From: Acidobacteriota bacterium
Lineage (GTDB): Bacteria > Acidobacteriota > UBA6911 > RPQK01 > CBDFMZ01
Length of the DNA stretch: 64,000 bases
NCBI GenBank assembly: GCA_965249865.1
Contig: CBDFMZ010000001.1
Span: forward strand, 704,415 to 768,414
Direction: 5' to 3'
Every line of letters begins with the position of its first letter. Position 1 is the first letter of the stretch. Positions 6,941-63,692 of this stretch are shown here, in pieces. A program made the translations under genes and the position numbers. The notes beneath the pieces are model-generated. The model was not told where the DNA came from, made no database searches, and saw nothing but the letters and a program-made list of their open reading frames with translations.

Positions 6941-6943
6941 CCT

Positions 6944-34991: not shown

Positions 34992-35040
34992 GTATGTAAT
35001 CCCCTTCGTTTAGGGGATTATATACTAAAGTAGCGAAGCA
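34980..35040. repeat. two IS1595-type terminal inverted repeats abutting outward-to-outward, 7-bp spacer (ttcgttt)
   Basis: 34980-35004 ttggctagttaggtatgtaatcccc (degenerate, about 17/23 match to the 38961-38989 end, same orientation) and 35012-35040 aggggattatatactaaagtagcgaagca (23/26 match to the reverse complement of 38961-38989). Confidence 0.6.
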
Positions 35041-35046
35041 CCTGAC

Positions 35047-35223: not shown

Positions 35224-35247
35224 CACATCCTCCTCAGAGTTCGATCA

Positions 35248-38989: not shown

Positions 38990-39261
38990 TCCTATTCTAG
39001 GGGCATTATATAGCATAGTGCCCAGGGGAAGGAGATCACTCCAGCCAGTGCCGGAGTAAAACCCACACTGTGAGCGTCACCCCCTATCTGCTAACCTACC
39101 AGGGAGGTGGGCGGGCTGAGGTCTAAAGCTCTAACCCCTACTAAGTAACTAACTCAATGAGTACTGTGACTATGAGTAACCCTAACCTACCGCATCCTAA
39201 GACTAGAGCAACTCTATCCTACCCCTACCCACCAGATGAGTAACCCTGATCAACTTAACCC

Positions 39262-39852
39262 ATGAGCAATGCTAAGATTTCCGCCCCCACACCCACCAAA
39301 AAACTCACCCGCCAGCAATCCCTCTTCATCCGCTACTACCTCCAGTGCTTCAACGGCGCAGAGGCCGTAAGACAAGCCGGATACAGCCTCAAGGCAGCAA
39401 ATAGACAGGCCGTGCAGCTTTTGTCCATGCCTGTCGTCGTGTTTGAGATCCAGCGGCGCATGGCGGTGCTCCTAGGCAAGCTGGACATCTCGGCAGAGCG
39501 GGTCATTGCGGAAATGTGCAAGGTGGCGTTCTCAGACCTCTCGGAAGTGGCCGAATGGGGTCCGGATGGTCTAAAACTGAAAGATTCCGCCAGCCTCGAC
39601 CCCAGTGCTGCCGCATCCGTGCGCACCATTGCCGAGAAGCACACCAAGTACGGCAAGAGCCTGGCCATCCAGCTGCATGACAAGGTGAAGGCGCTGTACA
39701 CCCTGGGCAGATGGCTCAAGCTGGGCGAGGTGGAAGAGGGGCTGGGACCACGGCTGACAACGGGCATTCCACACTGTGAGGAACTGCCGGAGCAGGCAAC
39801 GAACAGGCAACAACAGGATCTGGCGGCCTCTCCTGGGGATGACCTTCCGTAG
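39262..39852 (+). CDS. phage terminase small subunit
   Basis: 196 aa; N-terminal LTRQQSLFIRYYLQCFNGAEAVRQAGYS matches the small-terminase HTH signature; immediately upstream of the large terminase. Confidence 0.7.
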   Translation: MSNAKISAPTPTKKLTRQQSLFIRYYLQCFNGAEAVRQAGYSLKAANRQAVQLLSMPVVVFEIQRRMAVLLGKLDISAERVIAEMCKVAFSDLSEVAEWGPDGLKLKDSASLDPSAAASVRTIAEKHTKYGKSLAIQLHDKVKALYTLGRWLKLGEVEEGLGPRLTTGIPHCEELPEQATNRQQQDLAASPGDDLP

Positions 39853-40106
39853 ACCCCCCCCCACCGTCCTGCTACCCCCCCTTCGCATCTCTATATGCGC
39901 CCGTCTGGGTGAAAACGGAAAAACGGAGGAATGGAAAGGGCGCCTCGGAAAAATAGAGAGAGGGAAAACTGGGGTTGTGAAGGGGGAGCGCGAAGGTTGG
40001 TGCAGTGGCATAGGGGGTCTCGTGACTATCGCCTGACCTATGGCGCGGTAGTGTATCATTGCGAGAGCCCCGTTGGAGTCGCCTGATGAATTAGATTGGA
40101 GGATAG

Positions 40107-46756: not shown

Positions 46757-48013
46757 TTGCAACAAAGAAACACCGATGTTGTCGCTCTTCAGCTGGAGAA
46801 GGTACGTGAGAAGCTTCCCCAGCTCTATGAGCGAGACGATACGCTACTCACCATGATCCAGGAGCGGGGCGACGTGGAGCCGGTCTCCAGTCGCAACATG
46901 AGGATCCCCATTCAGATCCGGCCCGGCGGCAAGTTCGGGCAGGTCAATATGGATGGAGGAGACCTGGGGCGCGGCAGCGGGACCAAGTATCAGCCTGCCC
47001 AGGTATCCCCTATTTCGTTCCGCTTCGCCACGGAGATCTCCAAGCTGATCGAGTACAGCACCAATAGCGATGAGAAGGCGATCCGAAACGCGGTGGACCG
47101 GGAGATCGTGCAATCCATGGCCCAATTCCGTAACGTCCTGGAACGTTATCTGCACACGGCCGGGGACGCTGTCATCGGAGAGATCGACACGGGCGGCGTC
47201 AACGGCAATACCTTGACGCTCAAAGACCCGCACCGGGCCGATCTGATGTACTTCAACCAGGATGTCTCGATTTACAACTCCGGTTTGGACACCAAGCGCG
47301 GAGAGTCCGACATCACGGCCATCGACTACGAGGCTGGAGAGATCACGCTTGCGACGGCGCCCTCGGGGACCCTTGCGGGCGACAAGGTGCTGGTCTCGGG
47401 CGTCCTTGGGGCCAACCCAGTCGGACTTTATGGAATCAAGTACCATCAGAACAATGGCACCACTGGCATGTGGCTTAACTTGAACCGGGCCACCTACCCG
47501 GAGATCCGCACACCCCGTGTCAACGCTAACTCGTCGTCCCTGACGACAGGCCCCATCCGCTTGGCGCTCAACAAGCTGCGCAAGGCGCTGGGTGCGAACG
47601 TCCTGCAGCAAAAGCGGCTAATCGCCTGTTTGAACGTCGAGCAGGAAGACGCCTACGAGCAGCTGGGGATTGTCATCAGCGAGATCATTAAGGAGAGTTC
47701 GGCCCGCCAGGGCATGGATCTGTTCTTTAACGGCCCCAAGACGATGGCCAGCGTGCCCATGTACCCGAACGTGCATGCCGATCCGCTGCGGATTGATTTT
47801 TTGGCCCTGGAGCACTGGGGAAGGGCCGTTTCCAAGGAGGTCGATTTTTACGAGGTGGATGGCACTAAGATTTTTCCGCTCTACAACACCACGTCGGGAG
47901 GGGTCGAAGCCGCGTTCGTTTACTACTACGTGACCACCTTCCAGGTGTTCACGGACAATCCGCGGTGCGGCGCTTACATCGACAATTTGATCCGGCCCTC
48001 CGGTTACAACTAA
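46757..48013 (+). CDS. major capsid protein (putative)
   Basis: 418-aa ORF with strong RBS (ggaggaaagagca-TTG); position after scaffold-like gene; size typical of P22/other coat proteins; no motif confirmation possible. Confidence 0.5.
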   Translation: MQQRNTDVVALQLEKVREKLPQLYERDDTLLTMIQERGDVEPVSSRNMRIPIQIRPGGKFGQVNMDGGDLGRGSGTKYQPAQVSPISFRFATEISKLIEYSTNSDEKAIRNAVDREIVQSMAQFRNVLERYLHTAGDAVIGEIDTGGVNGNTLTLKDPHRADLMYFNQDVSIYNSGLDTKRGESDITAIDYEAGEITLATAPSGTLAGDKVLVSGVLGANPVGLYGIKYHQNNGTTGMWLNLNRATYPEIRTPRVNANSSSLTTGPIRLALNKLRKALGANVLQQKRLIACLNVEQEDAYEQLGIVISEIIKESSARQGMDLFFNGPKTMASVPMYPNVHADPLRIDFLALEHWGRAVSKEVDFYEVDGTKIFPLYNTTSGGVEAAFVYYYVTTFQVFTDNPRCGAYIDNLIRPSGYN

Positions 48014-50928: not shown

Positions 50929-53301
50929 GTGATCGAAGGCTTGACGCCGATCCCGGTGGAGAATTTCGGAGGCCTCGTGACGCTACCGGCGCTGTCCGAT
51001 CTGGCCCGGGGGATGAGTCCCGACTGTCAGAACGTTATCTTTCCGCCGGGCCAGGTGAGGACGCGCGAGGGACTGAGCGTGCCGTTTACCGCCGTGGGGA
51101 GCGTGAAATTCCACTCCATCGCCAGGTACGCCACCCCAGGATTCGTGAAACGGATCATGGCGTTCGGATCCAATGGTACGCTCTACAAGGAGAGTCCGGC
51201 GGGAACCTTGGCCGTGGTTCGCTCGGGCCTGGTTGCGGATTCCTACATGATCACGGATACCTTGTTCGGGCGCCTGTACTGCGCCTTCTACAACGGTCGG
51301 GTGGGTGGGGATATCCCCCTCTCGTTCGACGATGACTCCGTGTACCGGGTGTCTCCTGAAGGACCCGGCGCTGGTCCTTCCCTGATCGACGATTCATCTC
51401 TCACGACGGGTCGGATCCCGGCAGGCTTGCACAAGGCGGTCTGCTGGTTCGAGACCGCGACTGGGTACTGGACCAAGTGCTCGCCTCCAGTCCAGTGGTC
51501 CGCAGAAGGGGCCAAGCGGGTCAATATCACCGATATTCCCACCGGACCCGGCTGGGTGAAAAAGCGGTTCCTGGCCTTCACCACGGCCGGTGGGGAGAGC
51601 TACTACCATGTCCCGACCACGATGGTTATCGATAACAACACCACCACTGCGGTGACGCTCGACTTTTCCCTTGAAGAGCTGACGGCGGGGGAGCTGGTCG
51701 ATTATCTCTTTCGCATCCGGCAGGTCTCCAAACCCCTGGGCGTGTTCGCTACCGTGAACCGGCTGCTGTGGTGGTCGCCCCGGGCTTTGATGAGCAGCTG
51801 GCGGAACCTAGCCTTCGATGGCGGGTTCGCCTCGGGAGGCGAGCCGTTGGGATGGAGCCAAGGGACAAACTTCGCTGGAGGTTCTCAGGAAACTACTGAC
51901 ATAGTTTTTGGTCATGCGTGGCGGATTCAGGGAAATGGGACCGCCAGCATCAGGGGAGAAATCACTCAGGCGGCGTTCCGAGACGCCTGGGGAGGAGCCC
52001 GTCAGATTCGCGCCAACACCCGCTACAAGGTCCGGGCCCGGGTTCGCAAGAGTTCAGGTCTCGACTCCGGCCGTCTGAACATCGATCTGTCCTTCGACAG
52101 CTTTAATACGTCGGGTCTTCAAGTGAGCGCCTCTGACGCCACTACCGATTTCGCGGAGTATGAAGGGAATCTTACGGCGGGACTCAACTCGATTTCGACG
52201 GGCCTGGTCCTGCGGGTGTTTACCGATGAGACCCCGACCGATGGCGAGTCGTTCTATGTGGATGAGATTGAGATTTTCGAGGCGGCCGAGCCCTGGCATG
52301 CCTCCACGGTTTTCGTCTCCAAGCCTTTTCAGCCGGAAGCGCTCGATGCCATCGAGGGGCTACTCCAGGTGGCCCGTGATGACGGCCATGCGCTGCGGGC
52401 CATGTTCTCCCTGAACAACCTGATCTATCTGATCAAGGAACGCTCCATCTGGGTCACTGAGGACAACGGCGTCACCGAGGCCGATGGATGGACCCTGCGC
52501 CTGGTCTCCCCTTCGGTGGGGACCTTCTCTCCGCGCGGCGTGGCTGTGGGGGAGGATTGGGCCATCATCCTGTCCTTTGACGGGGTGTATCTGTTCGATG
52601 GGAGCCAACCGAAGCCCATCTCCGATGAGATCCGCCCGAACTGGCAGCGTATCAACTGGCCCGAGGCGCATAAGAGCTGGGTGGAAGTCGATCTCGTCGC
52701 CAAGCGGGTCTATATCGGCATCCCCACGGGCACGGCCACCGAGCCGGACCGGGTCTTGATGCTCGACTACACGGAAGGGTTCGCGCTGGAGGGCTTCAAG
52801 GCGGTCCAGGAAGGACAGGCTGTCACAGGCCGGGGACGCAAATGGACAACCTGGACCATCCCGGCCAATGCGGGGCGTTTTCTTCGGCGGGAGAATCGAG
52901 CCGCCCGCGCCATGCTCTTTGGCAACAACGTGGGCAACGGGAAAATCTACGAGCTCGACCCGGCGGCTTTTCATGACGACGGTTCGGCCATCGATTCCTA
53001 CTACCGGACGGGCCCGGTCAAGGCGAGCGCGGCGGTGCTGGATCTTTACGGATATCTGAGCGCCTACGTGTGGGGATCGGGAACACTCTCGATCCATCTG
53101 TACCAGCCTGACAACTCGCATGAATCCGTGACGAGCCATTCCCTGTCCAATCCCGCCGACGAAGACCTGGAACGGTTTCTGGAGCTTGAAGCGGAACGGG
53201 CTAGTGTCCAGTTTCGCACGAACTCCTCTGGAAATTGGTTTGCTCTGAGCAAATGTGTCCTGTGGGGAGCGCCCCACCCCATGATGCCGGTTCGAGGATA
53301 A
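50929..53301 (+). CDS. large phage tail protein (putative)
   Basis: 790-aa ORF preceding the fibre gene; beta-rich. Confidence 0.45.
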   Translation: MIEGLTPIPVENFGGLVTLPALSDLARGMSPDCQNVIFPPGQVRTREGLSVPFTAVGSVKFHSIARYATPGFVKRIMAFGSNGTLYKESPAGTLAVVRSGLVADSYMITDTLFGRLYCAFYNGRVGGDIPLSFDDDSVYRVSPEGPGAGPSLIDDSSLTTGRIPAGLHKAVCWFETATGYWTKCSPPVQWSAEGAKRVNITDIPTGPGWVKKRFLAFTTAGGESYYHVPTTMVIDNNTTTAVTLDFSLEELTAGELVDYLFRIRQVSKPLGVFATVNRLLWWSPRALMSSWRNLAFDGGFASGGEPLGWSQGTNFAGGSQETTDIVFGHAWRIQGNGTASIRGEITQAAFRDAWGGARQIRANTRYKVRARVRKSSGLDSGRLNIDLSFDSFNTSGLQVSASDATTDFAEYEGNLTAGLNSISTGLVLRVFTDETPTDGESFYVDEIEIFEAAEPWHASTVFVSKPFQPEALDAIEGLLQVARDDGHALRAMFSLNNLIYLIKERSIWVTEDNGVTEADGWTLRLVSPSVGTFSPRGVAVGEDWAIILSFDGVYLFDGSQPKPISDEIRPNWQRINWPEAHKSWVEVDLVAKRVYIGIPTGTATEPDRVLMLDYTEGFALEGFKAVQEGQAVTGRGRKWTTWTIPANAGRFLRRENRAARAMLFGNNVGNGKIYELDPAAFHDDGSAIDSYYRTGPVKASAAVLDLYGYLSAYVWGSGTLSIHLYQPDNSHESVTSHSLSNPADEDLERFLELEAERASVQFRTNSSGNWFALSKCVLWGAPHPMMPVRG

Positions 53302-53306
53302 GCCTT

Positions 53307-55745
53307 ATGGGACTCGCGCTGCATCAGCTCAACGAGATCAAGCACAGGGACCCGCACCTGTACGAAGTGCTGTCGGAGATCCTCAAGAGGGTCCAAAACG
53401 TCGAGTTCGAGACCGGAACCGAGCCTCCCGCTCCGGGGAGCCTCAAGCCGCAATCGCTGCCCGGAACCCCCGGATCGATCGACCACCCGGAGGCCCCGTT
53501 CGTCTTCGCGGATGCCATCGGCCTGGGAATTACCTTCAATATCGTGCCGCCCCAGGGCGCGAAGAATTACCAGAGCTTCAAGCACTATACGATCTCCCTC
53601 TATACGGACCGGGAGCGCAGAAAATTGGAAAGGACGCACAAGGGCTCTCAGGTCGAGTGGGCAACATCCCTAACGGTGATGACTCCAGGCGTCTATTACT
53701 GGTCCGTGACGGCGATCAACGCAGTGGGAGAGGGGGCTCCCGCGACCGGGAAGGCTTTCGTTGACGGCGTCTCGCCCGCCCCGAAAGACGGGGTGCCGGG
53801 AGTACCCTCGGTCTCCCTGGTTCAGAAAGTGATGGGAGGCGATCAGGCCCAGTTTCGTCTCACCCGGCCCTCCACCGGCTTCAACCAGATCGGACTCTAC
53901 CTGATCGTGGCGCGGGAAAACTCCACCTTCGATTTTCTGTACAGCCCCACCTCCTTTACCGGGAGCACCATCAAGGGAAGCAGTCTCTTGAATTCCACCA
54001 CCATCGTGTTCGCCTCCGGGGACGTAGGGAAACTGGTGGAACTCACCGGGGTCGAGTTCAATCTGGTCACCGGGCAGCGGCATCTTTACATCATCAAGGA
54101 GGTCGTCAGCGGCTCCCAGGTGCGCCTGCATGTCAACTTACCCTTCACTCAGGCGAGCGTGACGGGCAGAATCGGCACACCCTGGTGGAAGGACTCCCAG
54201 TACGTGAACCGCTGGGACATCTTCGTTCAGGGACCCCAGGCCACCCAGTCTCCGGATCACGAGTCGTTCGCCTTCCACCTGCCCTTCGACGGAAAGACGG
54301 TCTACCTGGCGGCCACCGCCATCAGCGTCTATGGATACTCGGACTGGTCCTCGACCATCGCCGTCACTACCGGAAGCCGGGCGTTGGCGTCCTCCCGGGG
54401 CATTCAGCCCGTCATCGGGACCAGCTTTACCCCCACCTCTTACCGGCGCGTCTCCTGGACCTCCGGCAGCGTCTACTACCCCGATGGAGGAACCGAATCT
54501 ATCAATAGCGGGAGTACTGGCAATTTGCCCACCAACGTGACTCGCTGGGTTTACAAGGTCCGGGGCAATGTGAATCTTCAAGTGAGCAGCTCCATTGCAA
54601 ACGCGACCGGCTTGGACCGGTTCCCGGTCGCCATCGTGCGCACTACCTCGGACACGGGCGAGTTTGCCTCCGTCGTTACCCTGGTCGCCAACAACAAAGG
54701 CTCCGTGCTCTCGGCCCGCAATCTCACCGTGGGAAAGCTCTCCGCACTGAGCGCCGACCTGGGAGAAATCACGGCGGGCAAGATCACGGGGCTGCAGATT
54801 AAAACGAGCTCCAGCGGCTCTCGCATCGAGTTGGATTCCACCAATGGATTCCGGGCCATCGATAGCTCGGGGGACGTCCGGGTGAAGATTCCCACTAGCG
54901 GAGATCTGGTGGAATTCTCCGGTTACGGCCGGATTACAGGGGACATACTTATTGACCCGAACACCGGTCTCGGCGTGGGATCGATGTTCCTTCGTCCCGT
55001 TTTCCCTCAAACAAACAATTTCTTTCTGGGAAGTTCCATATCGGAATGGTGTCGGATCAGCATACAGGCCAGCAATCAAATCTATATCAACTGCGGCGAG
55101 CTCCGGGTCGACGGCGCTCTCACGATGGTCGGCACAAATTCCGACATCGACTTATCGGGCAACGATATTGGTAGCGTGGGCGACGTGGAGCTGGACTCGT
55201 TGACCAAGGATGGAAACGGCAACATTTCGGTTAATGACGATCTGAACCTCTCGGGCAACGATCTCCTCAACGTAGGCGATGTGGAGCTGGACTCGTTGAC
55301 CAAGGATGGAACCGGGGACATTTCGGTTAATGACAATCTGGACCTCTCGGGCAACGATATCCTCAACGTGGGCGACGTGGAGCTGGACTCGTTGACCAAG
55401 GATGGGACCGGCAACATTGCGGTCAATGACAATCTGGACCTCTCGGGCAACGATATCCTCAACGTGGGCGACGTGGAATGCGACTCGTTGACCAAGGATG
55501 GGACCGGCAACATCCTCTTGAACGACGCCATCGTTCCTTCTGGCAGCGGGGATACGGATCCTTTCTTGGGGACGACGGCCATCCCATTCAACCGGGTTTC
55601 GGTGCACCGCGTTTTGTTTGACGAACGGGGAGCGCCCGCAACACCATCCAGCACTCATGCCTGGCTCTACACGGATTCTAATAGCGGCGACCTGGTCGTT
55701 AAATTTGACTCAGGGAACACTGTCACAGTGGCAACCTATGTCTAA
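53307..55745 (+). CDS. tail fibre/spike protein with internal 20-aa tandem repeats
   Basis: 812 aa from ATG 53307 (RBS gaggataagcctt); four tandem copies of DLSGNDILNVGDVELDSLTKDGTGNIxVNDNL near the C-terminus. Confidence 0.55.
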   Translation: MGLALHQLNEIKHRDPHLYEVLSEILKRVQNVEFETGTEPPAPGSLKPQSLPGTPGSIDHPEAPFVFADAIGLGITFNIVPPQGAKNYQSFKHYTISLYTDRERRKLERTHKGSQVEWATSLTVMTPGVYYWSVTAINAVGEGAPATGKAFVDGVSPAPKDGVPGVPSVSLVQKVMGGDQAQFRLTRPSTGFNQIGLYLIVARENSTFDFLYSPTSFTGSTIKGSSLLNSTTIVFASGDVGKLVELTGVEFNLVTGQRHLYIIKEVVSGSQVRLHVNLPFTQASVTGRIGTPWWKDSQYVNRWDIFVQGPQATQSPDHESFAFHLPFDGKTVYLAATAISVYGYSDWSSTIAVTTGSRALASSRGIQPVIGTSFTPTSYRRVSWTSGSVYYPDGGTESINSGSTGNLPTNVTRWVYKVRGNVNLQVSSSIANATGLDRFPVAIVRTTSDTGEFASVVTLVANNKGSVLSARNLTVGKLSALSADLGEITAGKITGLQIKTSSSGSRIELDSTNGFRAIDSSGDVRVKIPTSGDLVEFSGYGRITGDILIDPNTGLGVGSMFLRPVFPQTNNFFLGSSISEWCRISIQASNQIYINCGELRVDGALTMVGTNSDIDLSGNDIGSVGDVELDSLTKDGNGNISVNDDLNLSGNDLLNVGDVELDSLTKDGTGDISVNDNLDLSGNDILNVGDVELDSLTKDGTGNIAVNDNLDLSGNDILNVGDVECDSLTKDGTGNILLNDAIVPSGSGDTDPFLGTTAIPFNRVSVHRVLFDERGAPATPSSTHAWLYTDSNSGDLVVKFDSGNTVTVATYV
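55149..55525. repeat. 4 x 60-bp tandem repeat inside tail-fibre gene
   Basis: Near-identical 60-nt units encoding the 20-aa repeat; copies differ at a few positions (N/T, S/A, L/C). Confidence 0.8.
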
Positions 55746-55773: not shown

Positions 55774-55944
55774 ATGCAACCCATTCAACTGGACGACCAG
55801 GACATCAAGAAGGGATTCGGGGAACTCTACACGGAGATTCTTCTGCTCAAAAAGCAGCTCCTGATTGAGCGGGCGGCCAACGATCAGCTCCAGCAGGCAC
55901 TCCAGGAACTAAAACAAGACGACCAGGAGGAAGAACAGGGATGA
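55774..55944 (+). CDS. small coiled-coil phage protein
   Basis: 56 aa; aaggag RBS 7 nt upstream. Confidence 0.35.
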   Translation: MQPIQLDDQDIKKGFGELYTEILLLKKQLLIERAANDQLQQALQELKQDDQEEEQG

Positions 55945-56357
55945 TTCGAGTTCTGCGGTCCGAGGACGCGCCCCATCTGGAGCGGATGTTCGAGCAACAG
56001 CATGCCCCCGAAGAGACCTTGGATGGCTTCGAAGCCGGCTTTCTGGGGGATGGCCTGGTGAGCAAGTTCGTCTGTTGCGACGAGGAGGGGCGGCCCCGCT
56101 TGGCGATGGTGGCGCGTCTGACGGCGGAAGTTGCGGTCTTCGGAGATCCCAACTGGAGGACGCCCAAAGAACGGTTTCTCTTAGGTGCTCAGCTAGAGCG
56201 GATCCTGTGCGAGGACCTGAAACAAAAGGGCCTGGATTCCCTGGTGGCCTTCATTCCGAGGACCTACAGGCGGTTTGCCGAGAGGATCGGGCAGCTGGGG
56301 TGGAGGGCGCAGACTTGGATTTCCATGAGAAAGGATTTGACCGATGGGCAGAAATAA
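55941..56357 (+). CDS. hypothetical phage protein (small alpha/beta; possible acetyltransferase-like)
   Basis: 138-aa ORF overlapping upstream stop (atga). Confidence 0.35.
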   Translation: MIRVLRSEDAPHLERMFEQQHAPEETLDGFEAGFLGDGLVSKFVCCDEEGRPRLAMVARLTAEVAVFGDPNWRTPKERFLLGAQLERILCEDLKQKGLDSLVAFIPRTYRRFAERIGQLGWRAQTWISMRKDLTDGQK

Positions 56358-56919
56358 AGGCAGCGAAGAGCAAAGAGATCTATCCAGAGAACAGCTGAGA
56401 ATGGACCAGCAGTGGCGTGCCGATCAACGGCGGGAACGTCAAGAAATGCGATCCACTCTCATGCCCGAGATCATGGGAATTCCGACCGAGTACGCGCCCG
56501 AAGAGAAGCAATCGATCATGCAATCCGCCCTGGACGCCACTGGGGGAGTGTATGACGTGGCCCGGGCGCGGGCCTCGCGGCACCGGGGACGCACCCGCCA
56601 GACGGCTGGGTACTCGGAGGCCGTGGGCGAGCTGACGCGCCAGGAAGCCGGCCAAAAGGCGGGATCCCGACGCTCTATCGAGAGCCAGTTTGCGGATGAG
56701 AAGTGGAGGCGGACCCTGGCCCGGCTGGATGCTCTGGCCAGCTTGTATGGGATCGACACGCGGCTGCTGGCCTCGACGGCCGGATTGTCGAGCCGGTCTC
56801 TGTATGGCCATGCCCAGGGGATCAGCCGGGGAAGCATCTGGGGAGATGTGATCAGCGGGGCCGCCCAGGTGGGCGCGGTAGGACTGGGAGGAATACAAAA
56901 TGCACAGACCTCTGGTTAG
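56344..56919 (+). CDS. hypothetical phage protein
   Basis: 191-aa ORF. Confidence 0.4.
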   Translation: MGRNKGSEEQRDLSREQLRMDQQWRADQRRERQEMRSTLMPEIMGIPTEYAPEEKQSIMQSALDATGGVYDVARARASRHRGRTRQTAGYSEAVGELTRQEAGQKAGSRRSIESQFADEKWRRTLARLDALASLYGIDTRLLASTAGLSSRSLYGHAQGISRGSIWGDVISGAAQVGAVGLGGIQNAQTSG

Positions 56920-56999
56920 AGCTCCGGTTCCAGGATATGAAAAAGAGCGGAACCCCTTTAGAGCTCCGGTTCCAGGATATGAAGAAGAACGGAACCCCT
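56917..56999 (+). terminator. two tandem 41-bp stem-loop repeats immediately after stop codon (terminator-like)
   Basis: tagagctccggttccaggatatgaaRaagaRcggaacccctt x2; each has ccggttcc ... ggaacc(cc) arms; the second is followed by ttttt. Confidence 0.45.
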
Positions 57000-57016
57000 T
57001 TTTACACGCGCTGAAG

Positions 57017-58246
57017 ATGAGGCGCCGCCGGCAGGATCCATCGGGTGGGTTTCCCGATCCTCCGGTCATGCCCCCAGCTCCGAAGCCCCCGGATTACGGC
57101 GATAGGCCACAGTACGAGCCTCCTGTGCAACCGGGATTGTGGAAGTCATTGCTGGCCATAGGTTTGGGATCGGCTGCGGAGGCGGGCCGTCCCGGCGGGG
57201 CCCAGCAAGTAGCGCACAACGTCTTTGAGGCTCCCCGTCAGAGGGCGCTCCAGCAGCATCAGCGGGCTCTGGGCAAACATTATGACAAGATGGGCGTCAT
57301 TCAGCGGGCGTATGAGGATGAATGGCGGAGGAGAAACTCAAAAAAGGACGAAAGGCTAGCACAATACGACTCCGAGATAGACCTTGCACTCTTTAGCTCC
57401 CGTCGTGAGGATGCTAGGTTGAAGCGGCAAGCTACGTCCGACCGGTGGAACGAGGAAATGAAGTTGCAGGAATCGCAAACCGAAAACCAGAAGTCGTATT
57501 GGCAAGCTATGTCCGACCAGCAGGAAAAGCGACTTGAGTTGGAGGAATTGCGAACCAACGCTCTGCTCCTGGAGATGAAGGCCAAGACTGAAGCTGGAAA
57601 GAGCCTAAGTCCAAGTCAAAGGGCGGATATGGCACGGGACTACACCAGAGCGCAAGGAGAGATCCGGGATCGTTATGCGAAATGGATGTCTTTGTCCAGT
57701 GATGAGGAGGGGCTGGAACTAAAACGGCAGATGGATAAGGAGTTGCAAGAGTTGAAAGAACTCTTCGAATCTAGTGGACTCCGGTTTCCTCCTCCAGCGC
57801 CAGGCTCAGAAGGCTTTAATCTGGTATCATCCCATGATCCAGCGCCAGGCTATCCCAATGGGTCCGATAACCCCCGGGATGTCATACCCGAGGACCGGTT
57901 GTTAGAGATGTCAAATACTGGTCGAGTTCCAGTTGCTCCATATCCAGACTTAAGAGACTCTAATCTGCCGCCAGGCTTAGGAGGCTCTAATCTGCGACCA
58001 TCCCATGTCGTATCCAAGACATCGAAGCCACGCTTTCGAAATCGGTCCGTAGGCGTTAATCCGCGACAGTCTGCTTCAGCGTCAGGCTTAGGAGGCTCTA
58101 ATCTGCGACCATCCCATGCTCCAGATCCAGGCTTAGGAGGCAAAAAATTGACGACAAAGGAAGCTGAGAAGTTTTTTAAACTGGCTAATTCCAATCCAAA
58201 AGAGGCGCGGCGATTAGCTCGTGCGGCTGGATATTGGTGGGAGTAG
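57017..58246 (+). CDS. hypothetical phage protein with coiled-coil core and Pro/Gly-rich termini
   Basis: 409 aa from ATG 57017 (the listed ORF from 56900 would read through the stem-loop repeats); repeated GLGGSNLRPSH motif near the C-terminus. Confidence 0.45.
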   Translation: MRRRRQDPSGGFPDPPVMPPAPKPPDYGDRPQYEPPVQPGLWKSLLAIGLGSAAEAGRPGGAQQVAHNVFEAPRQRALQQHQRALGKHYDKMGVIQRAYEDEWRRRNSKKDERLAQYDSEIDLALFSSRREDARLKRQATSDRWNEEMKLQESQTENQKSYWQAMSDQQEKRLELEELRTNALLLEMKAKTEAGKSLSPSQRADMARDYTRAQGEIRDRYAKWMSLSSDEEGLELKRQMDKELQELKELFESSGLRFPPPAPGSEGFNLVSSHDPAPGYPNGSDNPRDVIPEDRLLEMSNTGRVPVAPYPDLRDSNLPPGLGGSNLRPSHVVSKTSKPRFRNRSVGVNPRQSASASGLGGSNLRPSHAPDPGLGGKKLTTKEAEKFFKLANSNPKEARRLARAAGYWWE

Positions 58247-61200
58247 TCATGCCAGATATTTTTGACCGGTTGGCGGACTCTTTTCCCACCTCATCGAAGA
58301 CACGTAAAAAGGATATTTTCGATGAGGTGGAGGAGAAATACAAAAAGGAGACTCAAGCTCCCATCCCCTTGGAACATCGCCTCGACTGGAGTCGTCCGCG
58401 ACCCAGCAGCCTGGAATCGGCTTACCGCTCCTTCGGGAGGAGTTATCTTCACGGAGTGGGGTCAATCCCCAAGTACGTCGGCATCGCGGCCAAGGCCATC
58501 GGCGAAGATCGTCCTCTGGAAGAGTTAGCCAGCTATCGGCTAGGGTCCTGGATCCAGGAGTACGGTGAGGAGGCATTCCCTCGCGACACCCGGGTCGGAA
58601 AATCGTTCTGGAAGCACACGCTGCCAGGGGCTTTTGGGTCCATGGCCGCCTTTCTGACTGGAGGAGTGGCTGGCAAGGTTCTCAAGCTTGGCACCGCTGG
58701 GGCCACGGCAATCTCTGGGGTGACTGGGGTCGCCATGGAATCCAGCAACCAGTACGAAGAGGCGAAGGCTGCAGGGGCTTCTGACGATGATGCCATGAAT
58801 GCTTGGCTATGGGGCCATCCCATCGGAGCCATCGAGGCGGTTCCGATTGGACGGGCCTTGCGCCGATTCGACCGGGTGACAGGCGGAGGACTGCGAGCCG
58901 TGTTGTCCTCTGGATTTAAAGGAACGGCCGAAGAAGCCATTCAGGAAGCCGTGCAGCAGGTTGGATCCAATATTGTTGCCCAACAGATTTACGACCCGGG
59001 CCGGTCCTGGTCTGGAGGTATCGGCGAGAGTGCCGCAGCCGGTGGCATCGTGGGCGCGGCAACCAACATGGCCTTAACCGCCGCTGGGTTGACTACCCGG
59101 CGCGGAAGGGCTTTCGGGCTGCAGCAAAAAATCTCCAAACTCGAAAAGCAGCTCGCAAGTTTCGATCAGCTGAAGGCGGTTGACCAACAACCTGGGACTC
59201 CGAAAAATCGAGTGGAATGGGTTTCCACAAATCAGATCGAGGTTCGTCCCGACGACATGCAACCCCGCCATGGGCGCGGCAAGTACCGCACCATTCCCTC
59301 TCATGTCGAGTCGATTCAACGCAGCATGCAAACGTCCGGCTTCAAGACCGAGTTTCCGTTGCGGGTATGGGAAGATCCCACCACTGGGCAAAAGGTCCTG
59401 TTGGAAGGGCACCATCGGCTAGAGGCCGCTGAAGGAGCGGGATTGGATCAGGTTCCCGTACAGCGCGTCACGGGCAGTTACGAGGAAGCGGCGGCCCAGG
59501 CGCGTCGTTCCAATTCTCAGAATGTCCCCCTGTCTACGATTGAAGAATCCCGGGCTTTCGCCAAGGAAGCCCAGGAGGGCAAGAGCACCGAGGAGATCGC
59601 TAAACTCTACGGCGGAATCAAGGTTTCCAAGGTTGAAGACCGCTTGGCGCTCAACCAGCTTTCGCCTCGTTTGCAGGACCTAGTTCAACAAGAAGTATTT
59701 GATCTAAAACTGGCTGAAGTCCTCGGCCGCAAGTCCCACCAGCACGGGTTGCCTCCAGCTGTTCAGGAAGAGATCTTCGATAAGGTCATCCTGAAACAGG
59801 ATCTTACCAAAATGGAGCTCGAAACCTTGATCGACACGATAGCCCCGGAAGCGACCAAACAGTTGACTATGGGGCTGGGATTTAAGATCGATCAAGGCAT
59901 CGTGGACCCTCTCAAGGAGATTGTGGCTAAGATCCGCAAACTTACCAGTGAGCGAAAGGATGCCAACAAGATTCGCCGCTATATTCGCCGGAAAGAAAAA
60001 GCGGGAGAAAAGATCGCTGGTTGGAGGAGGACAGCCCTAGGAGAAACCAGCGCCGAAGTATCCAGACTGAGTAAAGAGCTCAAGGACCTAAAGAGATCTA
60101 TTGGCCGAGGGCCTAAACCTACGGCTGCAGGAGTCTCCGCGCAAATCGAGAGCGATAGGGTTAAACTGCAGAAGAGTGAGGATATCTTAACCCAACACGA
60201 AATTGATCCACTGTCTTCTACCCAGACTCCTGGGACGGTCAAGAAGGCGCTGGAGTCCCCCGGTCCCGTCAGCCGTAGCCAGATCGTGAAGCGACTCTCG
60301 GAAAGTCTTGATATCCCCATTCGTGGGAGGATCGGGAAGTTTAGTGGAATTTACAAGCCAGACTCTAAGGTCGTTCGCACCAGGCGGGACTTTGATATGA
60401 CGACCATCGCGCATGAGGTGGGTCACCACCTAAATCTTTTCTGGTGGCCTTTCACAGACCCTAAGACCGGTAGAACCCATCTGGATCTGAAGCCATTGAA
60501 AGCATTCGAGGATGAGTATACTCCCCTCCTCGCTCATCTCGACCTGAGCGCTTATCAGCCTAGCGCGTACCCGAAAGAGGGGTGGGCGGAGTTCGTTCGG
60601 CTCTATCTGACGGAGCCAGAGAAGGCTCGAACGAAGACCCCAAAAATGTACGCCATGATGGAGTCGAAGTTGGATGAGAGCCCGGATATTCGGGACATTA
60701 TTTACCAGTTTAGAAGCGATTATCAGCGTTACGACAAGCAGCCAGCAACCCAAAAAATACTTTCCATGATTTCCAAGGAAGATCCGCCGCAGCCCAGCAA
60801 CCGTCTGGAATCGGCTGAAACGAAATGGCTCGACCATCTCAGCCCACTCAGGAAAGCCGTGGAGTCAATGGGGGATGTTCCGACCAATCGTAATGCCTAC
60901 GAGCTGGCCCGTCTGTTGGCCGGCTGGTCTGGAAAGGCGGATCATTTTCTCAAGCACGGCACATTCGGTTTCCGGGAGCAAGGGATCACCGGGGAGGCTT
61001 TCGTCCAGATTCTTGAACCATTCCGGGACAACTTAGACAACTTTGCTGCATACCTGATCGCTCGCCGGACACTTGAAAAGAGCCATCAGGGGATCGATAC
61101 GGGGATCTCGCGGCAGGTGGCCCAAGAATCGCTCGCAGAACTCAGCTCTCCCGAGTTCGAGCAGGCGGCTAAGAAGCTGTACCGCTATCAATCGGACCTG

Positions 61201-63324
61201 CTCAAGTATCTGGAACAGGCTGGAGTTCTCTCGGCGGACCTCCGGGGGAAGATCGAGAAATGGAATCAGGACTATGTGCCCTTCTATCGGGTGATGCAGG
61301 AGGACTCTGGCTCCTTGGGCCAGCGGGGAGAGGAGATGGCTAACCTTTGGCATCCCATCAAACCGATGAAAGGTTCTCGCCGCGACATCGTAAATCCCCT
61401 GGAATCTATCGTGAAAAACACCTATGCCTTCATCCATCTGGCGGAGCGCAATGCGGTGGCTCAGGCGCTGGTGAGACAGGCCCGAAACACCGAAGGCGCC
61501 GAATGGATCGCCAAGCAGATTCCACCGGACACAAAACCCACGAAATTCAGGCTCTTGGAGATCCAGAAAGATTTAAAAAACCTGGGCGTGGAGTTGACCA
61601 GCGAGCAGCTCCAGGAAGCGGCCGTGATTTTCCGGCCCTCGGCCTATGCCTCCTCACGCGAGAACATCATTCGGGTCTTGGAGGGTGGTCAGGCGAGTTT
61701 TTACCAAGTCCACCCGGATGTCTACCGCACGTTGATGGCTCTGAATGAGGAGCAGGCCAACTTTGTTTTACGGGTGCTGGCCGCTCCAGCCCGCTTGCTC
61801 CGTCTGGGAGCCACCGCCCTGGGCCCCGAGTTCGCGGTCAGAAACCCGATCCGGGACACGTTGCAGGCCGCGCTTCAATCCGATGTGGGGTTTATTCCCT
61901 TCCTCGATACAGCCCGTGGGCTGTTCCACGTTCTCAAGCGGGATGGACTGTACCAAGAGTGGATGCGCAGCGGAGGCCCTATGGCCGCTTTGGTGAGTCT
62001 GGATCGCAAGAATCTCCAGAGCAATCTGAAGGACCTGACAGGTTCAAAGCTGAGCTGGGTCATGCGCCATCCAATCGAAGCTCTGCGCCTCTTCTCGGAG
62101 ACTTCCGAAGAGGCCACCCGAGTAGGCGTCTTTGCCAAGGCGAAAGCCCAAGGGATGAGTCTTGAGGCCGCAGGGTTGGAGTCCCGGGAGGCCACGATAG
62201 ATTTCGCCAAGAAGGGGCAATACGGCAAGAACATCAATATGGTGGTCGCCTTCTGGAACGCCGGAGTTCAGGGTACGAATAAATTCATTCAGGTCCATCG
62301 AAAGAACCCGAGACGAGCGGCTGCCATGGGTGCGGTCATGACGGGCATTAGCTTAATGAACTATGCCCTGAATCGGGACGATCCCGATTGGGAAGAAGTT
62401 CCCGACTGGCAAAAAGATTTTTTCTGGCTTTTCCCAGTGAAGCATACGCCTTTGGCTGGCGTTATGGATCAACTCCCTGAGTGGCTCCAGACGAAGTGGA
62501 TTCGGATCCCCAAGCCGTTTCTTTGGGGGATGCTCTATGGGTCCACCATGGAGCGTGCGGCCCGCTGGGTAGATCGGAAGGACCCGGCGGCTTTTGATGA
62601 TTTAGCAGAGAATCTCCTGCAAGCCACCATGCCTGGGATTGTTCCAACGGCTGCGATCCCACCGCTGGAACATTGGGCCAATCGGAGTTTTTTCACCGGC
62701 CGCGTGCTCGTTCCCGAGTACATGTCGGGAATCAAAGCAAAGTACCAGGACAGGCCCTACACCTCGGAGTGGTCCAAGACGACCTCTGAAGCACTGGACC
62801 GAATGGGGATTCCGATATCGCCCATCCATCTGGACAACTACCTGTATGGGTATACAGCCGGAGCGGGGCGGCTTCTGAGTGATATCTCGAACAAGATTGC
62901 GAAAAAGGGGGATCCCGCTCGAACCATGGCGGACGTGCCTTTGCTGCGAGCCTTCGCCGTTCGGTTCCCAAGCGGCTCGACCCGGTCAGTCCAGGATTTT
63001 TATGACGATATAGGCAAGCTCGATCAAAAGAAGAGAACCATCAATGCGCTGCGGAAGCGAAAGCAGCGGATTCCTCAAGCCGATCGGATGACCCTGCGAG
63101 AATCCTTCCGCTTGGAGCGGTTTCGTAAAATCAGCGATCATCTCCGCCAGATGAATCGACAAATTCGTTCCATCTACAGATCGCGCCAGTTGCCCCCCGA
63201 AGAAAAACGGAAGCGAATCGATTCCCTGCAGCTGAGAATAGGGAGGCTGGCTAGGCGTGCGTTGGGAAGAGGAAATAAACAGAAAAAACAAAACCCATCG
63301 AATCGCGTCATGGCCAAAGAGTAA
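58234..63324 (+). CDS. giant (1696 aa) phage protein with ParB/Srx-like nuclease-type domain and HExxH zincin-like motif - candidate polyvalent ejected protein
   Basis: ParB-like segment (nt about 59220-59470): IEVRPDDMQPRHGRGKYRTIPSHVESIQRSM...KVLLEGHHRLEAAEGAG. Zincin motif at nt 60412-60429: TIAHEVGHHLNLF with downstream EGWAEF. Gly/Ala-rich hydrophobic N-terminal region; rest unrecognised. Confidence 0.6.
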   Translation: MVGVVMPDIFDRLADSFPTSSKTRKKDIFDEVEEKYKKETQAPIPLEHRLDWSRPRPSSLESAYRSFGRSYLHGVGSIPKYVGIAAKAIGEDRPLEELASYRLGSWIQEYGEEAFPRDTRVGKSFWKHTLPGAFGSMAAFLTGGVAGKVLKLGTAGATAISGVTGVAMESSNQYEEAKAAGASDDDAMNAWLWGHPIGAIEAVPIGRALRRFDRVTGGGLRAVLSSGFKGTAEEAIQEAVQQVGSNIVAQQIYDPGRSWSGGIGESAAAGGIVGAATNMALTAAGLTTRRGRAFGLQQKISKLEKQLASFDQLKAVDQQPGTPKNRVEWVSTNQIEVRPDDMQPRHGRGKYRTIPSHVESIQRSMQTSGFKTEFPLRVWEDPTTGQKVLLEGHHRLEAAEGAGLDQVPVQRVTGSYEEAAAQARRSNSQNVPLSTIEESRAFAKEAQEGKSTEEIAKLYGGIKVSKVEDRLALNQLSPRLQDLVQQEVFDLKLAEVLGRKSHQHGLPPAVQEEIFDKVILKQDLTKMELETLIDTIAPEATKQLTMGLGFKIDQGIVDPLKEIVAKIRKLTSERKDANKIRRYIRRKEKAGEKIAGWRRTALGETSAEVSRLSKELKDLKRSIGRGPKPTAAGVSAQIESDRVKLQKSEDILTQHEIDPLSSTQTPGTVKKALESPGPVSRSQIVKRLSESLDIPIRGRIGKFSGIYKPDSKVVRTRRDFDMTTIAHEVGHHLNLFWWPFTDPKTGRTHLDLKPLKAFEDEYTPLLAHLDLSAYQPSAYPKEGWAEFVRLYLTEPEKARTKTPKMYAMMESKLDESPDIRDIIYQFRSDYQRYDKQPATQKILSMISKEDPPQPSNRLESAETKWLDHLSPLRKAVESMGDVPTNRNAYELARLLAGWSGKADHFLKHGTFGFREQGITGEAFVQILEPFRDNLDNFAAYLIARRTLEKSHQGIDTGISRQVAQESLAELSSPEFEQAAKKLYRYQSDLLKYLEQAGVLSADLRGKIEKWNQDYVPFYRVMQEDSGSLGQRGEEMANLWHPIKPMKGSRRDIVNPLESIVKNTYAFIHLAERNAVAQALVRQARNTEGAEWIAKQIPPDTKPTKFRLLEIQKDLKNLGVELTSEQLQEAAVIFRPSAYASSRENIIRVLEGGQASFYQVHPDVYRTLMALNEEQANFVLRVLAAPARLLRLGATALGPEFAVRNPIRDTLQAALQSDVGFIPFLDTARGLFHVLKRDGLYQEWMRSGGPMAALVSLDRKNLQSNLKDLTGSKLSWVMRHPIEALRLFSETSEEATRVGVFAKAKAQGMSLEAAGLESREATIDFAKKGQYGKNINMVVAFWNAGVQGTNKFIQVHRKNPRRAAAMGAVMTGISLMNYALNRDDPDWEEVPDWQKDFFWLFPVKHTPLAGVMDQLPEWLQTKWIRIPKPFLWGMLYGSTMERAARWVDRKDPAAFDDLAENLLQATMPGIVPTAAIPPLEHWANRSFFTGRVLVPEYMSGIKAKYQDRPYTSEWSKTTSEALDRMGIPISPIHLDNYLYGYTAGAGRLLSDISNKIAKKGDPARTMADVPLLRAFAVRFPSGSTRSVQDFYDDIGKLDQKKRTINALRKRKQRIPQADRMTLRESFRLERFRKISDHLRQMNRQIRSIYRSRQLPPEEKRKRIDSLQLRIGRLARRALGRGNKQKKQNPSNRVMAKE

Positions 63325-63380: not shown

Positions 63381-63692
63381 ATGTCTGACTTCATGCACAT
63401 CCTGGAACGCTCAATCATTCACTTTTTCAGTTCAGCCGGCTTCTACCTCATCGCGCTCTGGGGTTTCTGGATGCTGGAGCGGAAATGTCTCTGGTGGCCC
63501 CAGCTTCAAGACTGGTGGAAGCTTGTCTTGCTTGTCGTGGTGTCGTTTCTGTTCCTTTCTTTTAGGGAGATCTTCGACGTGAACGCCGGTGGATCCGCCG
63601 TGGAGTCGGTTTGCGATTGGCTCAGTTGGTTTGTGGGCCTGGGGGTGAGCGCGTGGGCAATCTACCGCCTGTTTCCGATGCGCTTGGCGTAG
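63381..63692 (+). CDS. small 3-TM membrane protein (holin-like candidate)
   Basis: 103 aa with three hydrophobic helices; follows the giant gene. Confidence 0.35.
   Translation: MSDFMHILERSIIHFFSSAGFYLIALWGFWMLERKCLWWPQLQDWWKLVLLVVVSFLFLSFREIFDVNAGGSAVESVCDWLSWFVGLGVSAWAIYRLFPMRLA

Follow-up and report, generated by a model that had tools for sequence, protein, structure and literature searches.

The 64,000-nucleotide window analyzed here, from an Acidobacteriota bacterium, carries a frame of 5 kb at the end of a prophage's late genes, which raises the question of whether so large a protein travels with the phage, serves the prophage within its host, or has no function at all. The uninterrupted frame spans positions 58234 to 63324 (+ strand), or 1,696 codons if counted from an in-frame upstream TTG. 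The original prediction adopted these limits, and the frame is indeed intact, but its start is better placed at the ATG at 58249 (MPDIFDRLA...). This codon is directly preceded by the Shine-Dalgarno-like stretch GGTGGGAG, the preceding ORF stops at 58246, and an identical database protein (P0001) is 1,691 aa long. The ATG is likely the true start, and the gene accordingly covers 58249 to 63324 and encodes a phage-type polyvalent protein of 1,691 aa. When compared with a relative that is 75% identical (P0002), dN/dS is ∼0.11 overall; leaving aside the first 60 codons, for which dS has reached saturation, each region falls between 0.05 and 0.25. Because dS approaches saturation in this comparison generally, the ratios are rough. 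These values indicate purifying selection on the entire frame.

The gene lies at the end of the structural module, as had been claimed. No large gene comes after it in a + strand late block that includes TerS (39262 to 39852), TerL (40107 to 41576), a major-capsid-like gene (46757 to 48013), and a virion structural protein (50929 to 53301), and it is co-oriented with the structural genes and overlaps or abuts its neighbors. A small holin-like ORF with two transmembrane segments follows directly, and the window ends 676 bp past the giant gene; in the relative encoding P0002, a Peptidase_M15 endolysin comes after the giant gene. The relative's prophage (L003) encodes a CI-like S24 repressor and is temperate. 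Three genes immediately upstream (55941 to 58246, +; 138, 191, and 448 aa) are syntenic with L003, where the genes in the same order are 75%, 77%, and 37% identical. None of the three has a Pfam or PHROG match or resembles N4 gp51 to gp54, the proteins encoded upstream of the phi24B giant gene, or the MW202898/FGH neighbors, and it is by position only that they are candidate partner ejection proteins. An IS1595 transposase adjoins the prophage end.

About 1,000 residues of the protein had been regarded as unassigned. This description no longer applies, because ∼800 aa belong to one conserved C-terminal module and ∼230 aa to an N-terminal domain resembling that of N4 gp50. The mainly alpha-helical module (60877 to 63018, +; ∼715 residues) is followed by a basic helical tail (63019 to 63321, +) with 33 K/R versus 9 D/E per 101 residues and long predicted helices. 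The module matches phrog_9854 (E = 1.4e-110) and contains LPD38 (Large polyvalent protein associated domain 38, PF18857; 62380 to 62943, +), detected at E = 1.3e-34 (120 bits) over profile positions 1 to 188 of 189 and at E = 1e-35 with the segment alone. By hhalign, it aligns with residues 1908 to 2786 of phi24B vb_24B_48 (prob 99.7, E = 1.4e-25), apparently the gp47 of the phi24B preprint. An AF2 model (pLDDT 72) consists chiefly of helices, and its BFVD matches are LPD38 polyvalent proteins throughout, including that of phage PTXU04 (Foldseek E = 6e-32); homology thus extends over the entire 800-aa module in both phages. Beyond LPD38, the phi24B and PTXU04 proteins share the zincin HExxH with its downstream Glu, the giant multidomain architecture, and the late or virion gene context. 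Mass spectrometry detected the phi24B protein in virions, and an ejection role was proposed for it (10.64898/2026.04.10.717836). Because no solved structure resembling the module was found, T7 gp15/gp16 and other solved ejection proteins included, a function in packaging or ejection is suggested for it by its constancy and by the parallels with phi24B and N4.

This constancy is evident across the family. The 248 homologues (E ≤ 1e-5; 33 to 47% identity) have the zincin and the C-terminal module in common, and the module is collinear in all homologues aligned. The zincin lies at a median of 822 residues from the C terminus (interquartile range, 805 to 854), while 60 to 4,838 residues precede it in proteins of ∼1,000 to 5,950 aa. 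The N termini vary, with DdrB-ParB, ParBc, lysozyme, SLT, GGDEF, RelA/SpoT, zeta toxin, and methylase domains, among others. In podophages, the homologous gene lies after the internal virion protein genes and before the tail fibers. The LPD38 match and the combination of a shared zincin and C-terminal module with unrelated N-terminal effectors bear out the proposal that the giant protein is a polyvalent protein, of the LPD38 phage type described by Iyer, Burroughs, Anand, de Souza, and Aravind (2017, J Bacteriol; PMC5512222).

The N-terminal effector in this case is a ParB module (59158 to 59853, +; residues ∼309 to 540), in which a ParB/Srx-like N-terminal domain and a ParB HTH were recognized by several ParB profiles and solved structures. 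It matches phrog_1033 (ParB-like; E = 9e-20), TIGR00180 (parB_part; E = 3.7e-9), and Spo0J in the PDB (1vz0; E = 2.2e-4), with further matches to Noc and PRTRC ParB profiles and to Noc and ParB chains, and Pfam HTH_ParB scored 22.7 bits against a cutoff of 22.6. The alignment with Spo0J, Noc, and PRTRC ParB covers ∼150 to 200 residues. In the alignment with Spo0J, GHHRLEAA (59407 to 59430, +) falls column by column on GERRYRAA as a variant of ParB box II (GERRxRAA), with His-His in place of Glu-Arg and the last Arg retained, and SNSQN (59509 to 59523, +) is the counterpart of the ENLQR box, of which Asn and Gln are retained. Since box II reads GHHR rather than GERR, CTP-dependent clamping should not be assumed. 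Neither Pfam ParBc nor the DdrB-ParB variant PF18763 matched the giant protein. ParB-superfamily cargo recurs among LPD38 proteins, but where others carry DdrB-ParB, methylase, LPD1/LPD5, or MuF-C, the sequence here points to a classical ParB N-domain with HTH rather than the DdrB-ParB usual in the family. The predicted ParB fold is thereby retained; the module is of the Spo0J/Noc type with an HTH, and no sign of a nuclease was obtained. DdrB of the phage P1 Dar antirestriction system is a head-packaged protein in which a ParB-superfamily domain is likewise joined to a C-terminal zincin, and it is believed to undergo processing and delivery together with the DNA; however, P1 is a myovirus, and its DdrB has the PF18763 variant and lacks the LPD38 module.

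A closer kinship to Spo0J, Noc, and PRTRC ParB than to DdrB-type domains, together with the temperate lifestyle of the relative's prophage, might suggest that the module serves prophage maintenance or regulation (partition, silencing, or nucleoid-occlusion-like binding) in a cytoplasmic, unpackaged protein. We regard this as very unlikely, given that the gene is embedded among co-oriented structural genes and that the module is fused to LPD38 and to a C-terminal region whose homologue is present in phi24B virions. Moreover, no ParA partner was seen, no C-terminal ParB dimerization domain was detected in the giant protein, nothing resembling parS turned up in the phage part of the window, and the module scores far under the curated cutoffs for partition families.

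Between the ParB module and the zincin lies a charged, poorly conserved linker (59854 to 60237, +) that matches P0002 only, has no significant family match, and shows the highest dN/dS (0.25) of the measurable regions. The zincin-like metallopeptidase domain that follows (60238 to 60876, +) is lethal-factor-like and has no covering Pfam model. Its HEVGH (60412 to 60426, +), the predicted zinc-binding and catalytic motif, aligns with HEFGH of lethal factor; as had been noticed originally, it accompanies GHHRLEAA, the two motifs being located at residues 727 and 392, 335 residues apart. The first Glu of EGWAEF (60577 to 60594, +), in the next helix, is the predicted third zinc ligand. Alignments A1 and A3 show no variation at H, E, and H of HEVGH or at this Glu, and the second Glu of EGWAEF is invariant in A1 and conserved at ≥90% in A3; the two Glu residues align with E735 and E739 of lethal factor. 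The domain is present in 100/139 collected homologues, with HExxH retained in all 100 and E[GA][FWYL][AS]E (family form EGFAEF) found in 79 of them, at a median of 46 residues past HExxH. A search with the domain returned 6,094 cluster representatives at E ≤ 1e-3. The family profile matched anthrax lethal factor in the PDB (2l0r, E = 7.4e-4; 4dv8, E = 0.01), and the AF2 model (pLDDT 87.6), comprising a beta-sheet, the HExxH helix, and the Glu helix, retrieved lethal factor by Foldseek (prob 0.99), followed by ArdC, IrrE/PprI, and PPEP-1. Although the best matches by profile and by fold are to the catalytic domain of lethal factor (MEROPS M34) and to the ArdC/IrrE zincins, with both helices aligned, the likeness is weak (E ∼1e-3, TM ∼0.36) and confined to the catalytic core, around which the helices are family specific. 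The zincin claim stands as to fold, whereas the Pfam MPTase-PolyVal model did not match the giant protein. Iyer et al. likewise tied the metallopeptidase of the N4 virion RNA polymerase to lethal factor (PMC5512222).

The missing matches to ParBc and MPTase-PolyVal, the transposase beside the prophage, and the fact that function is predicted for HExxH and GxxR from sequence and models could all be accommodated if the motifs were chance or relic features of a decaying prophage gene. This reading is contradicted by the invariance of HExxH in 100/100 homologous domains and by a dN/dS of ∼0.1 over an intact 5-kb frame. HExxH occurs once in the protein against 0.037 expected from composition, and the zincin segment is modeled with confidence, which leaves decay or coincidence scarcely credible.

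The Gly/Ala-rich N-terminal domain (58435 to 59136, +) is kin to the membrane-associating N-terminal domain of N4-like virion RNA polymerases. It matches phrog_2206 ("virion RNA polymerase"; E = 2.6e-11) and phrog_10691 (E = 1.3e-26), and BLASTP aligned it with N4 gp50 residues 233 to 432 (26% identity, E = 5e-4). An alignment of six sequences matched the N4 domain by hhalign (prob 67%, E = 5e-5) over N4 residues 320 to 431, so that residues 233 to 278, which overlap predicted membrane helices, are linked by the pairwise BLASTP match only. Both proteins start with FDRLA. The domain is also found near the N terminus of four homologues (P0013, P0046, P0015, and P0097) and is the best-conserved region relative to P0002 (88% amino acid identity, dN/dS 0.05). 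On a Kyte-Doolittle scale, it has no classical transmembrane or strongly hydrophobic segment; for the gp50 domain, membrane-spanning helices are predicted and nanodisc insertion has been reported (PMC13434306). The overall order in gp50 is also the same, with the N-terminal domain followed by a central enzymatic cargo, an HExxH zincin (C1), and a large alpha-helical C2 that has no structural relatives (PMC13434306). However, the giant protein lacks the RNA polymerase domain, the N4 C2 is longer (∼1,125 versus ∼800 aa), and no sequence similarity was detected between the N4 C-terminal domain and the module.

Alternatively, the protein might be mainly a structural component of the ejectosome or internal core, in the place that T7 gp16 or N4 gp50 occupies in those phages. 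The zincin would then clear a path for the DNA by digesting envelope proteins or the peptides of peptidoglycan, while the ParB module would simply hold the leading DNA end, with no anti-defense role. The run of small, small, medium, and giant genes after the tail genes reproduces the layout of T7 gp13 to gp16 and N4 gp52 to gp50, the PTXU04 homologue (gp25) is needed for infection, and the phi24B authors put forward a conduit role and peptidoglycan degradation by the metallopeptidase (10.64898/2026.04.10.717836). Some homologues on phage-sized contigs (for example, P0051, P0065, P0106, and P0137) consist of hardly more than the zincin and the C-terminal module, which points to an indispensable mechanical function of the module itself. 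Yet the protein shares neither fold nor sequence with T7 gp15/gp16 or other solved ejection proteins, its nearest zincins (lethal factor, ArdC, IrrE, and PPEP-1) cleave proteins, and the cargoes of its relatives (RelA/SpoT, GGDEF, zeta toxin, and methylases) are effector-like rather than structural. Homologues with dedicated lysozyme or SLT domains also retain the zincin, which is therefore not simply a wall-degrading activity. A mainly structural role, which overlaps with the polyvalent reading and is compatible with it, is in our estimation rather unlikely.

We consider it likely that the gene, part of a temperate podovirus-like prophage, encodes a polyvalent protein in which a constant delivery part is joined to a ParB cargo and which is packed and ejected. 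As originally proposed, the protein probably travels inside the phage head and is injected into the host together with the DNA, judging indirectly by the gene position, the phi24B-homologous C-terminal 800 aa, and the N4 gp50-like N-terminal domain. The zincin and the alpha-helical C-terminal module (∼800 residues including LPD38) would form the constant part, here supplemented by the N4 gp50-like domain, and the ParB-type N-domain and HTH would be the variable cargo. Synthesized late, the protein would be brought by its constant part into the capsid and, upon infection, out through the tail with the DNA. Its N-terminal domain might then join the envelope or the ejectosome, while the zincin might cleave either the polyprotein itself or a host protein. 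During the first minutes, DNA would be the target of the ParB module, which would most likely bind either the phage genome as it enters or the DNA of the host. Because the polyvalent class has already been described, the giant protein is a new member of it rather than a new kind of protein.

One uninterrupted reading frame on the + strand, in the ORF list and on translation, extends from a TTG at 58234 to a TAA ending at 63324 (1696 codons) and contains the motifs GHHRLEAA (residue 392) and HEVGH (residue 727), as had been described from the sequence. The start codon is the part of that description to be revised: an ATG at 58249 (MPDIFDRLA...), preceded by the stretch GGTGGGAG and located 3 nt past the stop of the preceding ORF (58246), is likelier than the TTG. 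Translation from this ATG yields exactly the 1691-aa database protein P0001 (100% identity). Residues are numbered here from the TTG, and the numbers of P0001 are 5 lower. Several unrelated domains are combined in the 1691-aa ORF, namely, a region resembling the N-terminal domain (NTD) of the N4 virion RNA polymerase gp50, a ParB region with a helix-turn-helix (HTH), a zincin, and a module bearing LPD38. [quoted passage not shown] 2017, PMC5512222). This match and the multidomain architecture bear out the original prediction of a polyvalent protein. Relatives are named "LPD38 domain-containing" or "large polyvalent protein" in UniProt and NCBI.

The gene lies at the end of a late-gene block. 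From position 1 to ~39 kb, the window holds ordinary chromosomal genes, including those for an aldehyde dehydrogenase, a symporter, a beta-lactamase-fold protein, and two large N6-methylases, along with Planctomycete-type PSD/PSCyt (DUF1592/1588/1587/1585/1595) and DUF1552 genes at 4352-8293, which are typical of Planctomycetota. The GC content changes from ~0.52 to ~0.60 at ~39000-40000, where the co-oriented late genes start. A search of the window detected neither a tRNA gene nor an evident att site to mark the left boundary of the prophage. A defense or mobile-DNA cluster is located immediately to the left of the prophage and comprises an 859-aa ORF without a Pfam hit (28070-30649, +), a 774-aa ORF with N6_Mtase, Methylase_S, and an HSDR_N fragment (30757-33081, +), an 888-aa N6_Mtase ORF (35248-37914, −), and an IS1595-family transposase gene (37924-38958, −) that adjoins the small terminase gene. 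The genes for the small terminase (39262-39852, +; Terminase_2, E=5.6e-26), the large terminase (40107-41576, +), a capsid-like protein (46757-48013, +), and a virion structural protein (50929-53301, +) all precede the giant gene, in agreement with the earlier proposal that it closes the virion module. Directly after it lies an ORF of 103 aa (63381-63692) that contains two hydrophobic stretches and likely encodes a holin, so that the late, virion-region gene is followed by a holin-like ORF here and by an endolysin gene in a relative. That relative, P0002, is 75% identical and is encoded in a second genome (locus L003) with the same gene order, a Peptidase_M15 endolysin gene next, and a CI-like S24 repressor gene further on; therefore, the element is a temperate prophage. 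A near-identity DNA search against phage genomes returned zero matches.

Within the late block, a putative tail-fiber gene (53235-55745, 836 aa) precedes three genes of 138, 191, and 448 aa (55941-58246) that lie directly upstream of the giant gene. The putative fiber and its L003 counterpart (4372-7779, 1135 aa) have only the first ~54 residues in common, whereas the flanking genes are 73 to 77% identical between the two prophages, a divergence that looks like the exchange of a receptor-binding cassette. The 138-, 191-, and 448-aa proteins gave zero hits in Pfam and PHROGs, and BLASTP against N4 gp51-54, the proteins preceding the phi24B giant protein, and the MW202898/FGH neighbors yielded nothing. 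The sizes and order of the three genes resemble those of T7 gp13, gp14, and gp15, and we consider them candidates for novel ejection proteins. The resemblance of the giant gene itself to T7 gp16 is one of gene position only, with no SLT or lysozyme hit in the protein and no Foldseek match to solved ejection proteins. A tape-measure or tail-fiber identity for the giant protein was rejected, since no such hits were obtained and podovirus-type relatives carry separate fiber genes.

The HExxH motif occurs once in the giant protein, against an expectation of 0.037 from composition. A chance occurrence was rejected on the basis of conservation: 100 of the 139 collected family proteins match a profile of the zincin region, and HExxH is kept in 100/100. 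A second motif, E[GA][FWYL][AS]E, is present in 79/100 of these domains at a median of 46 residues downstream of HExxH, and a 31-sequence alignment shows no variation in the H, E, and H or in the first Glu of EGFAEF. When compared to the PDB, the zincin profile matched anthrax lethal factor in its catalytic domain (2l0r, E=7.4e-4; 4dv8, E=0.01), with HExxH placed on the HEFGH of lethal factor and EGFAEF on the stretch holding Glu735 and Glu739. In the AlphaFold2 model of residues 655-885, which is confident (pLDDT 87.6), a small beta-sheet is accompanied by the HExxH helix, and a Glu-bearing helix comes next. In Foldseek searches of the PDB, lethal factor was the top match to this model (prob 0.99, E=0.03, TM 0.36), followed by ArdC, IrrE/PprI, and PPEP-1; the E-values are modest, and the matches are all zincins. 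The zincin originally predicted from HExxH is thus upheld by the conserved H/E/H/E residues, the lethal-factor profile match, and the zincin folds. The structure 4dv8 also served Iyer et al. (PMC5512222) to class the HExxH domain of the N4 virion RNA polymerase as a zincin. Pfam has no model for the domain; the hits obtained, to putative zinc peptidases, ATLF, and eCIS_core, were weak and scattered. The MPTase-PolyVal model (PF18818) found nothing at E≤1 in the giant protein or at E≤10 in eight family members. One Pfam model need not span every MPTase because 12 MPTase clades have been described (Iyer et al. 2017, PMC5512222).

The zincin is part of a large family in which it keeps a fixed distance from the C terminus. 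An HMMER scan of 1.84 billion representatives recovered at least 6094 clusters (50% identity) at E≤1e-3, of which 1365 were found at E≤1e-30. Among 71 long hits, the distance from the zincin end to the C terminus has a median of 822 residues (IQR 805-854), and the zincin is preceded by anywhere from 60 to 4838 residues. The first homologue search returned proteins of 1400 to 2600 aa that are collinear from just before HExxH to the C terminus, and a profile of the zincin-to-C-terminus region matched 248 proteins at E≤1e-5, most of them covered over 96 to 99% at 33 to 47% identity. The N-terminal parts of the homologues are unrelated in domain content and carry DdrB-ParB, ParBc (PF02195), phage lysozyme, SLT, GGDEF, RelA/SpoT, zeta toxin, and other domains; DdrB-ParB (PF18763) occurs in 13 homologues among the matches listed. 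The fixed location of the zincin relative to the C terminus, combined with variable N-terminal cargo, argues that the zincin and the conserved, mostly helical C-terminal module that follows it, including LPD38, form a packaging or ejection unit.

Searches of phage genomes with tblastn located this C-terminal region in giant proteins of podophages with genomes of ~35 to 40 kb, including Vibrio phages, Shewanella X14, Thalassomonas BA3, Pelagibacter HTVC010P/034P, and the Bacillus megaterium Pascal/Pony group, and more weakly in larger genomes, e.g., Ralstonia Gerry/Alix. In the podophages, the homologous gene follows the internal-virion-protein genes and precedes the tail-fiber genes. A weak tblastn hit to the Methanosarcina virus MetMV was also observed. 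In bacterial genomes, the module was found across many phyla. Further relatives of the module lie on contigs that binning assigned to Saccharibacteria (CPR), to Omnitrophota, and to a single Woesearchaeota MAG (L018, L040, L043, and L056), although the Woesearchaeota contig is just 2 kb and possibly misbinned.

The predicted structure of the C-terminal module is mostly helical (pLDDT 72). No similar solved structure was found, a Foldseek search of the PDB with a 1042-aa model having returned only noise. The family profile matched PDB sequences only through low-complexity TALE-repeat artifacts from N-terminal overhang columns. Among predicted viral structures, the module matches only LPD38 polyvalent proteins, including one from coliphage PTXU04 (E=6e-32). 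We assume that this match is gp25, a putative polyvalent protein of 2198 aa that is needed for infection by PTXU04 (PMC11879866). The module is also homologous to residues 1908-2786 of phi24B vb_24B_48 (2807 aa; hhalign prob 99.7, E=1.4e-25, 760 columns), which we take to be the same gene as that for gp47, the 2811-aa giant protein of phi24B with LPD5, LPD1, and LPD38 (10.64898/2026.04.10.717836). The latter was seen in virions by mass spectrometry, is invisible in the reconstruction, and was proposed by the authors to be an encapsidated ejection protein (10.64898/2026.04.10.717836). By analogy with this virion-borne homologue, the prophage protein would be packaged and delivered with the DNA. 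The phi24B giant protein (29149-37569 of locus L006) contains two more HExxH-type motifs, AHEWFH at ~aa 1295 and RHEIIHH at ~aa 1565, which BLASTP aligns weakly with the zincin region of the prophage protein; phi24B may have two diverged zincin copies far upstream of its C-terminal module. The main rival to the delivery of an effector is that the giant protein is chiefly a mechanical component of the ejectosome, with the zincin aiding the breach of the cell wall. A role of the zincin in breaching the wall was also suggested by the phi24B authors, and the mechanical and effector functions are compatible with each other.

Residues ~68 to 300 of the giant protein form a Gly/Ala-rich domain that was found again near the N termini of other giant proteins, P0013 (E=2e-39), P0046, P0015, and P0097. 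The virion RNA polymerase family phrog_2206 matches this N-domain (E=2.6e-11) only over profile positions 300-509, BLASTP aligns it with residues 233-432 of N4 gp50 (26% identity, E=5e-4), and hhalign aligns a small N-domain profile with gp50 residues 320-431 (prob 67%, E=5e-5). Taken together, these alignments provide moderate support for homology to the gp50 NTD. An FDRLA motif is common to the N termini of the giant protein (58249-58275) and N4 gp50 (locus L005), MPDIFDRLADSF versus MSVFDRLAGFADS, and may be a packaging or ejection signal. The N4 N-domain is predicted to span the membrane with helices located at residues 224-278, it inserts into nanodiscs when isolated, and it is proposed to help build an inner-membrane complex (PMC13434306). 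The C-terminal domain (CTD) of gp50 consists of C1, which bears HExxH, and of the helical C2, which has ~1125 aa and no structural relatives (PMC13434306), a layout equal to that of the zincin and helical module of the giant protein. Between the C-terminal module and the gp50 CTD, no significant similarity in sequence was detected (hhalign prob 0.1; weak fragments in hmmsearch), and the solved gp50 structure did not appear among the Foldseek matches. As for the polymerase domain of gp50, no RNA polymerase hit was obtained for the giant protein in Pfam, PHROGs, or the PDB.

The ParB region (residues ~309 to 540) matches phrog_1033 (E=9e-20), NCBIfam models for parB_part (TIGR00180, E=3.7e-9), PRTRC ParB, and Noc, and PDB chains of Spo0J (1vz0, E=2.2e-4), Noc, and ParB. 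HTH_ParB (PF17762) is marginal on the segment (22.7 bits versus a cut-off of 22.6) and reaches 27.6 bits in P0002. Judged by these profile matches, the region is of the classical N-domain-plus-HTH type; DdrB-ParB (PF18763), common in relatives, does not match the giant protein. Because the scores are far under partition-family cut-offs and Pfam ParBc gave no hit in the region, it is assigned to the ParB superfamily rather than to the partition proteins. In the alignment with Spo0J, GERRYRAA corresponds to GHHRLEAA and ENLQR to SNSQN. The last Arg of box II is kept and the Glu-Arg pair is lost, and the Asn and Gln of the ENLQR box are kept; GHHRLEAA thus lacks the GERRxRA arginine pair of CTP binding and hydrolysis. 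The earlier ParB-like reading of this region holds at the level of superfamily profiles. A search of the phage-derived portion of the window for canonical parS found no significant site, and none of the scanned late genes looked ParA-like; the early region lies beyond the window.

The giant gene is under purifying constraint, with an overall dN/dS of 0.11 relative to P0002. The ratio is 0.05 for the N-domain, 0.11 for ParB, 0.25 for the linker, 0.10 for the zincin, 0.08 for the C-terminal module, 0.05 for LPD38, and 0.17 for the basic tail; all values are approximate because dS is ~1.5 outside the first 60 codons, where saturation of dS makes the ratio uncomputable. Each measurable domain is under constraint, and therefore the gene is not in decay. 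Kyte-Doolittle analysis of the giant protein revealed no strong transmembrane segment. The last 101 residues (63019-63321) are very basic (33 K/R versus 9 D/E) and predicted to be helical, and this tail may touch DNA within the capsid.

The giant protein is probably a delivered effector whose C-terminal part would mediate encapsidation and which would then exit the capsid together with the DNA. As has been proposed for N4 gp50, its N-domain would contact the envelope or ejectosome. The zincin would process either the polyprotein or a target in the host, in line with the proposal of Iyer et al. for the polyvalent class, and the ParB-HTH cargo would act on DNA in early infection. A bolder possibility, which we consider improbable, is that the zincin and the ~800-aa helical module, here with a gp50-like N-domain added, serve podoviruses in general as a delivery chassis that is equivalent to what the NTD and CTD are in N4 gp50. 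In this prophage, the chassis would carry not a polymerase but a ParB clamp. This ParB-type protein, NTP-dependent and preloaded in the capsid, would enter with the leading DNA end and spread on or bridge the incoming genome. If so, ParB would have a new biological use: once delivered, it could shield the genome against restriction or nuclease attack, or establish silencing or segregation for lysogeny.

The polyvalent class, LPD38, zincins, and ParB-superfamily fusions are already in print, and the conceptual gain is small because LPD38, zincin, and ParB-superfamily polyvalent proteins have been known since 2017. Modest novelty lies in the classical ParB-plus-HTH cargo with GHHR, in the gp50-like N-domain, in a zincin family without a Pfam hit that is notable for its size and its fixed position, and in the setting among Planctomycete-type genes. 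The analysis extends the polyvalent class to a prophage in a chromosome with such genes and ties the zincin and C-terminal module to a phi24B virion protein and, via the N-domain and layout, to the N4 virion RNA polymerase. The combination of ParB cargo, zincin, and C-terminal module is a compact construct for studying the encapsidation and ejection of giant proteins and a delivered ParB.
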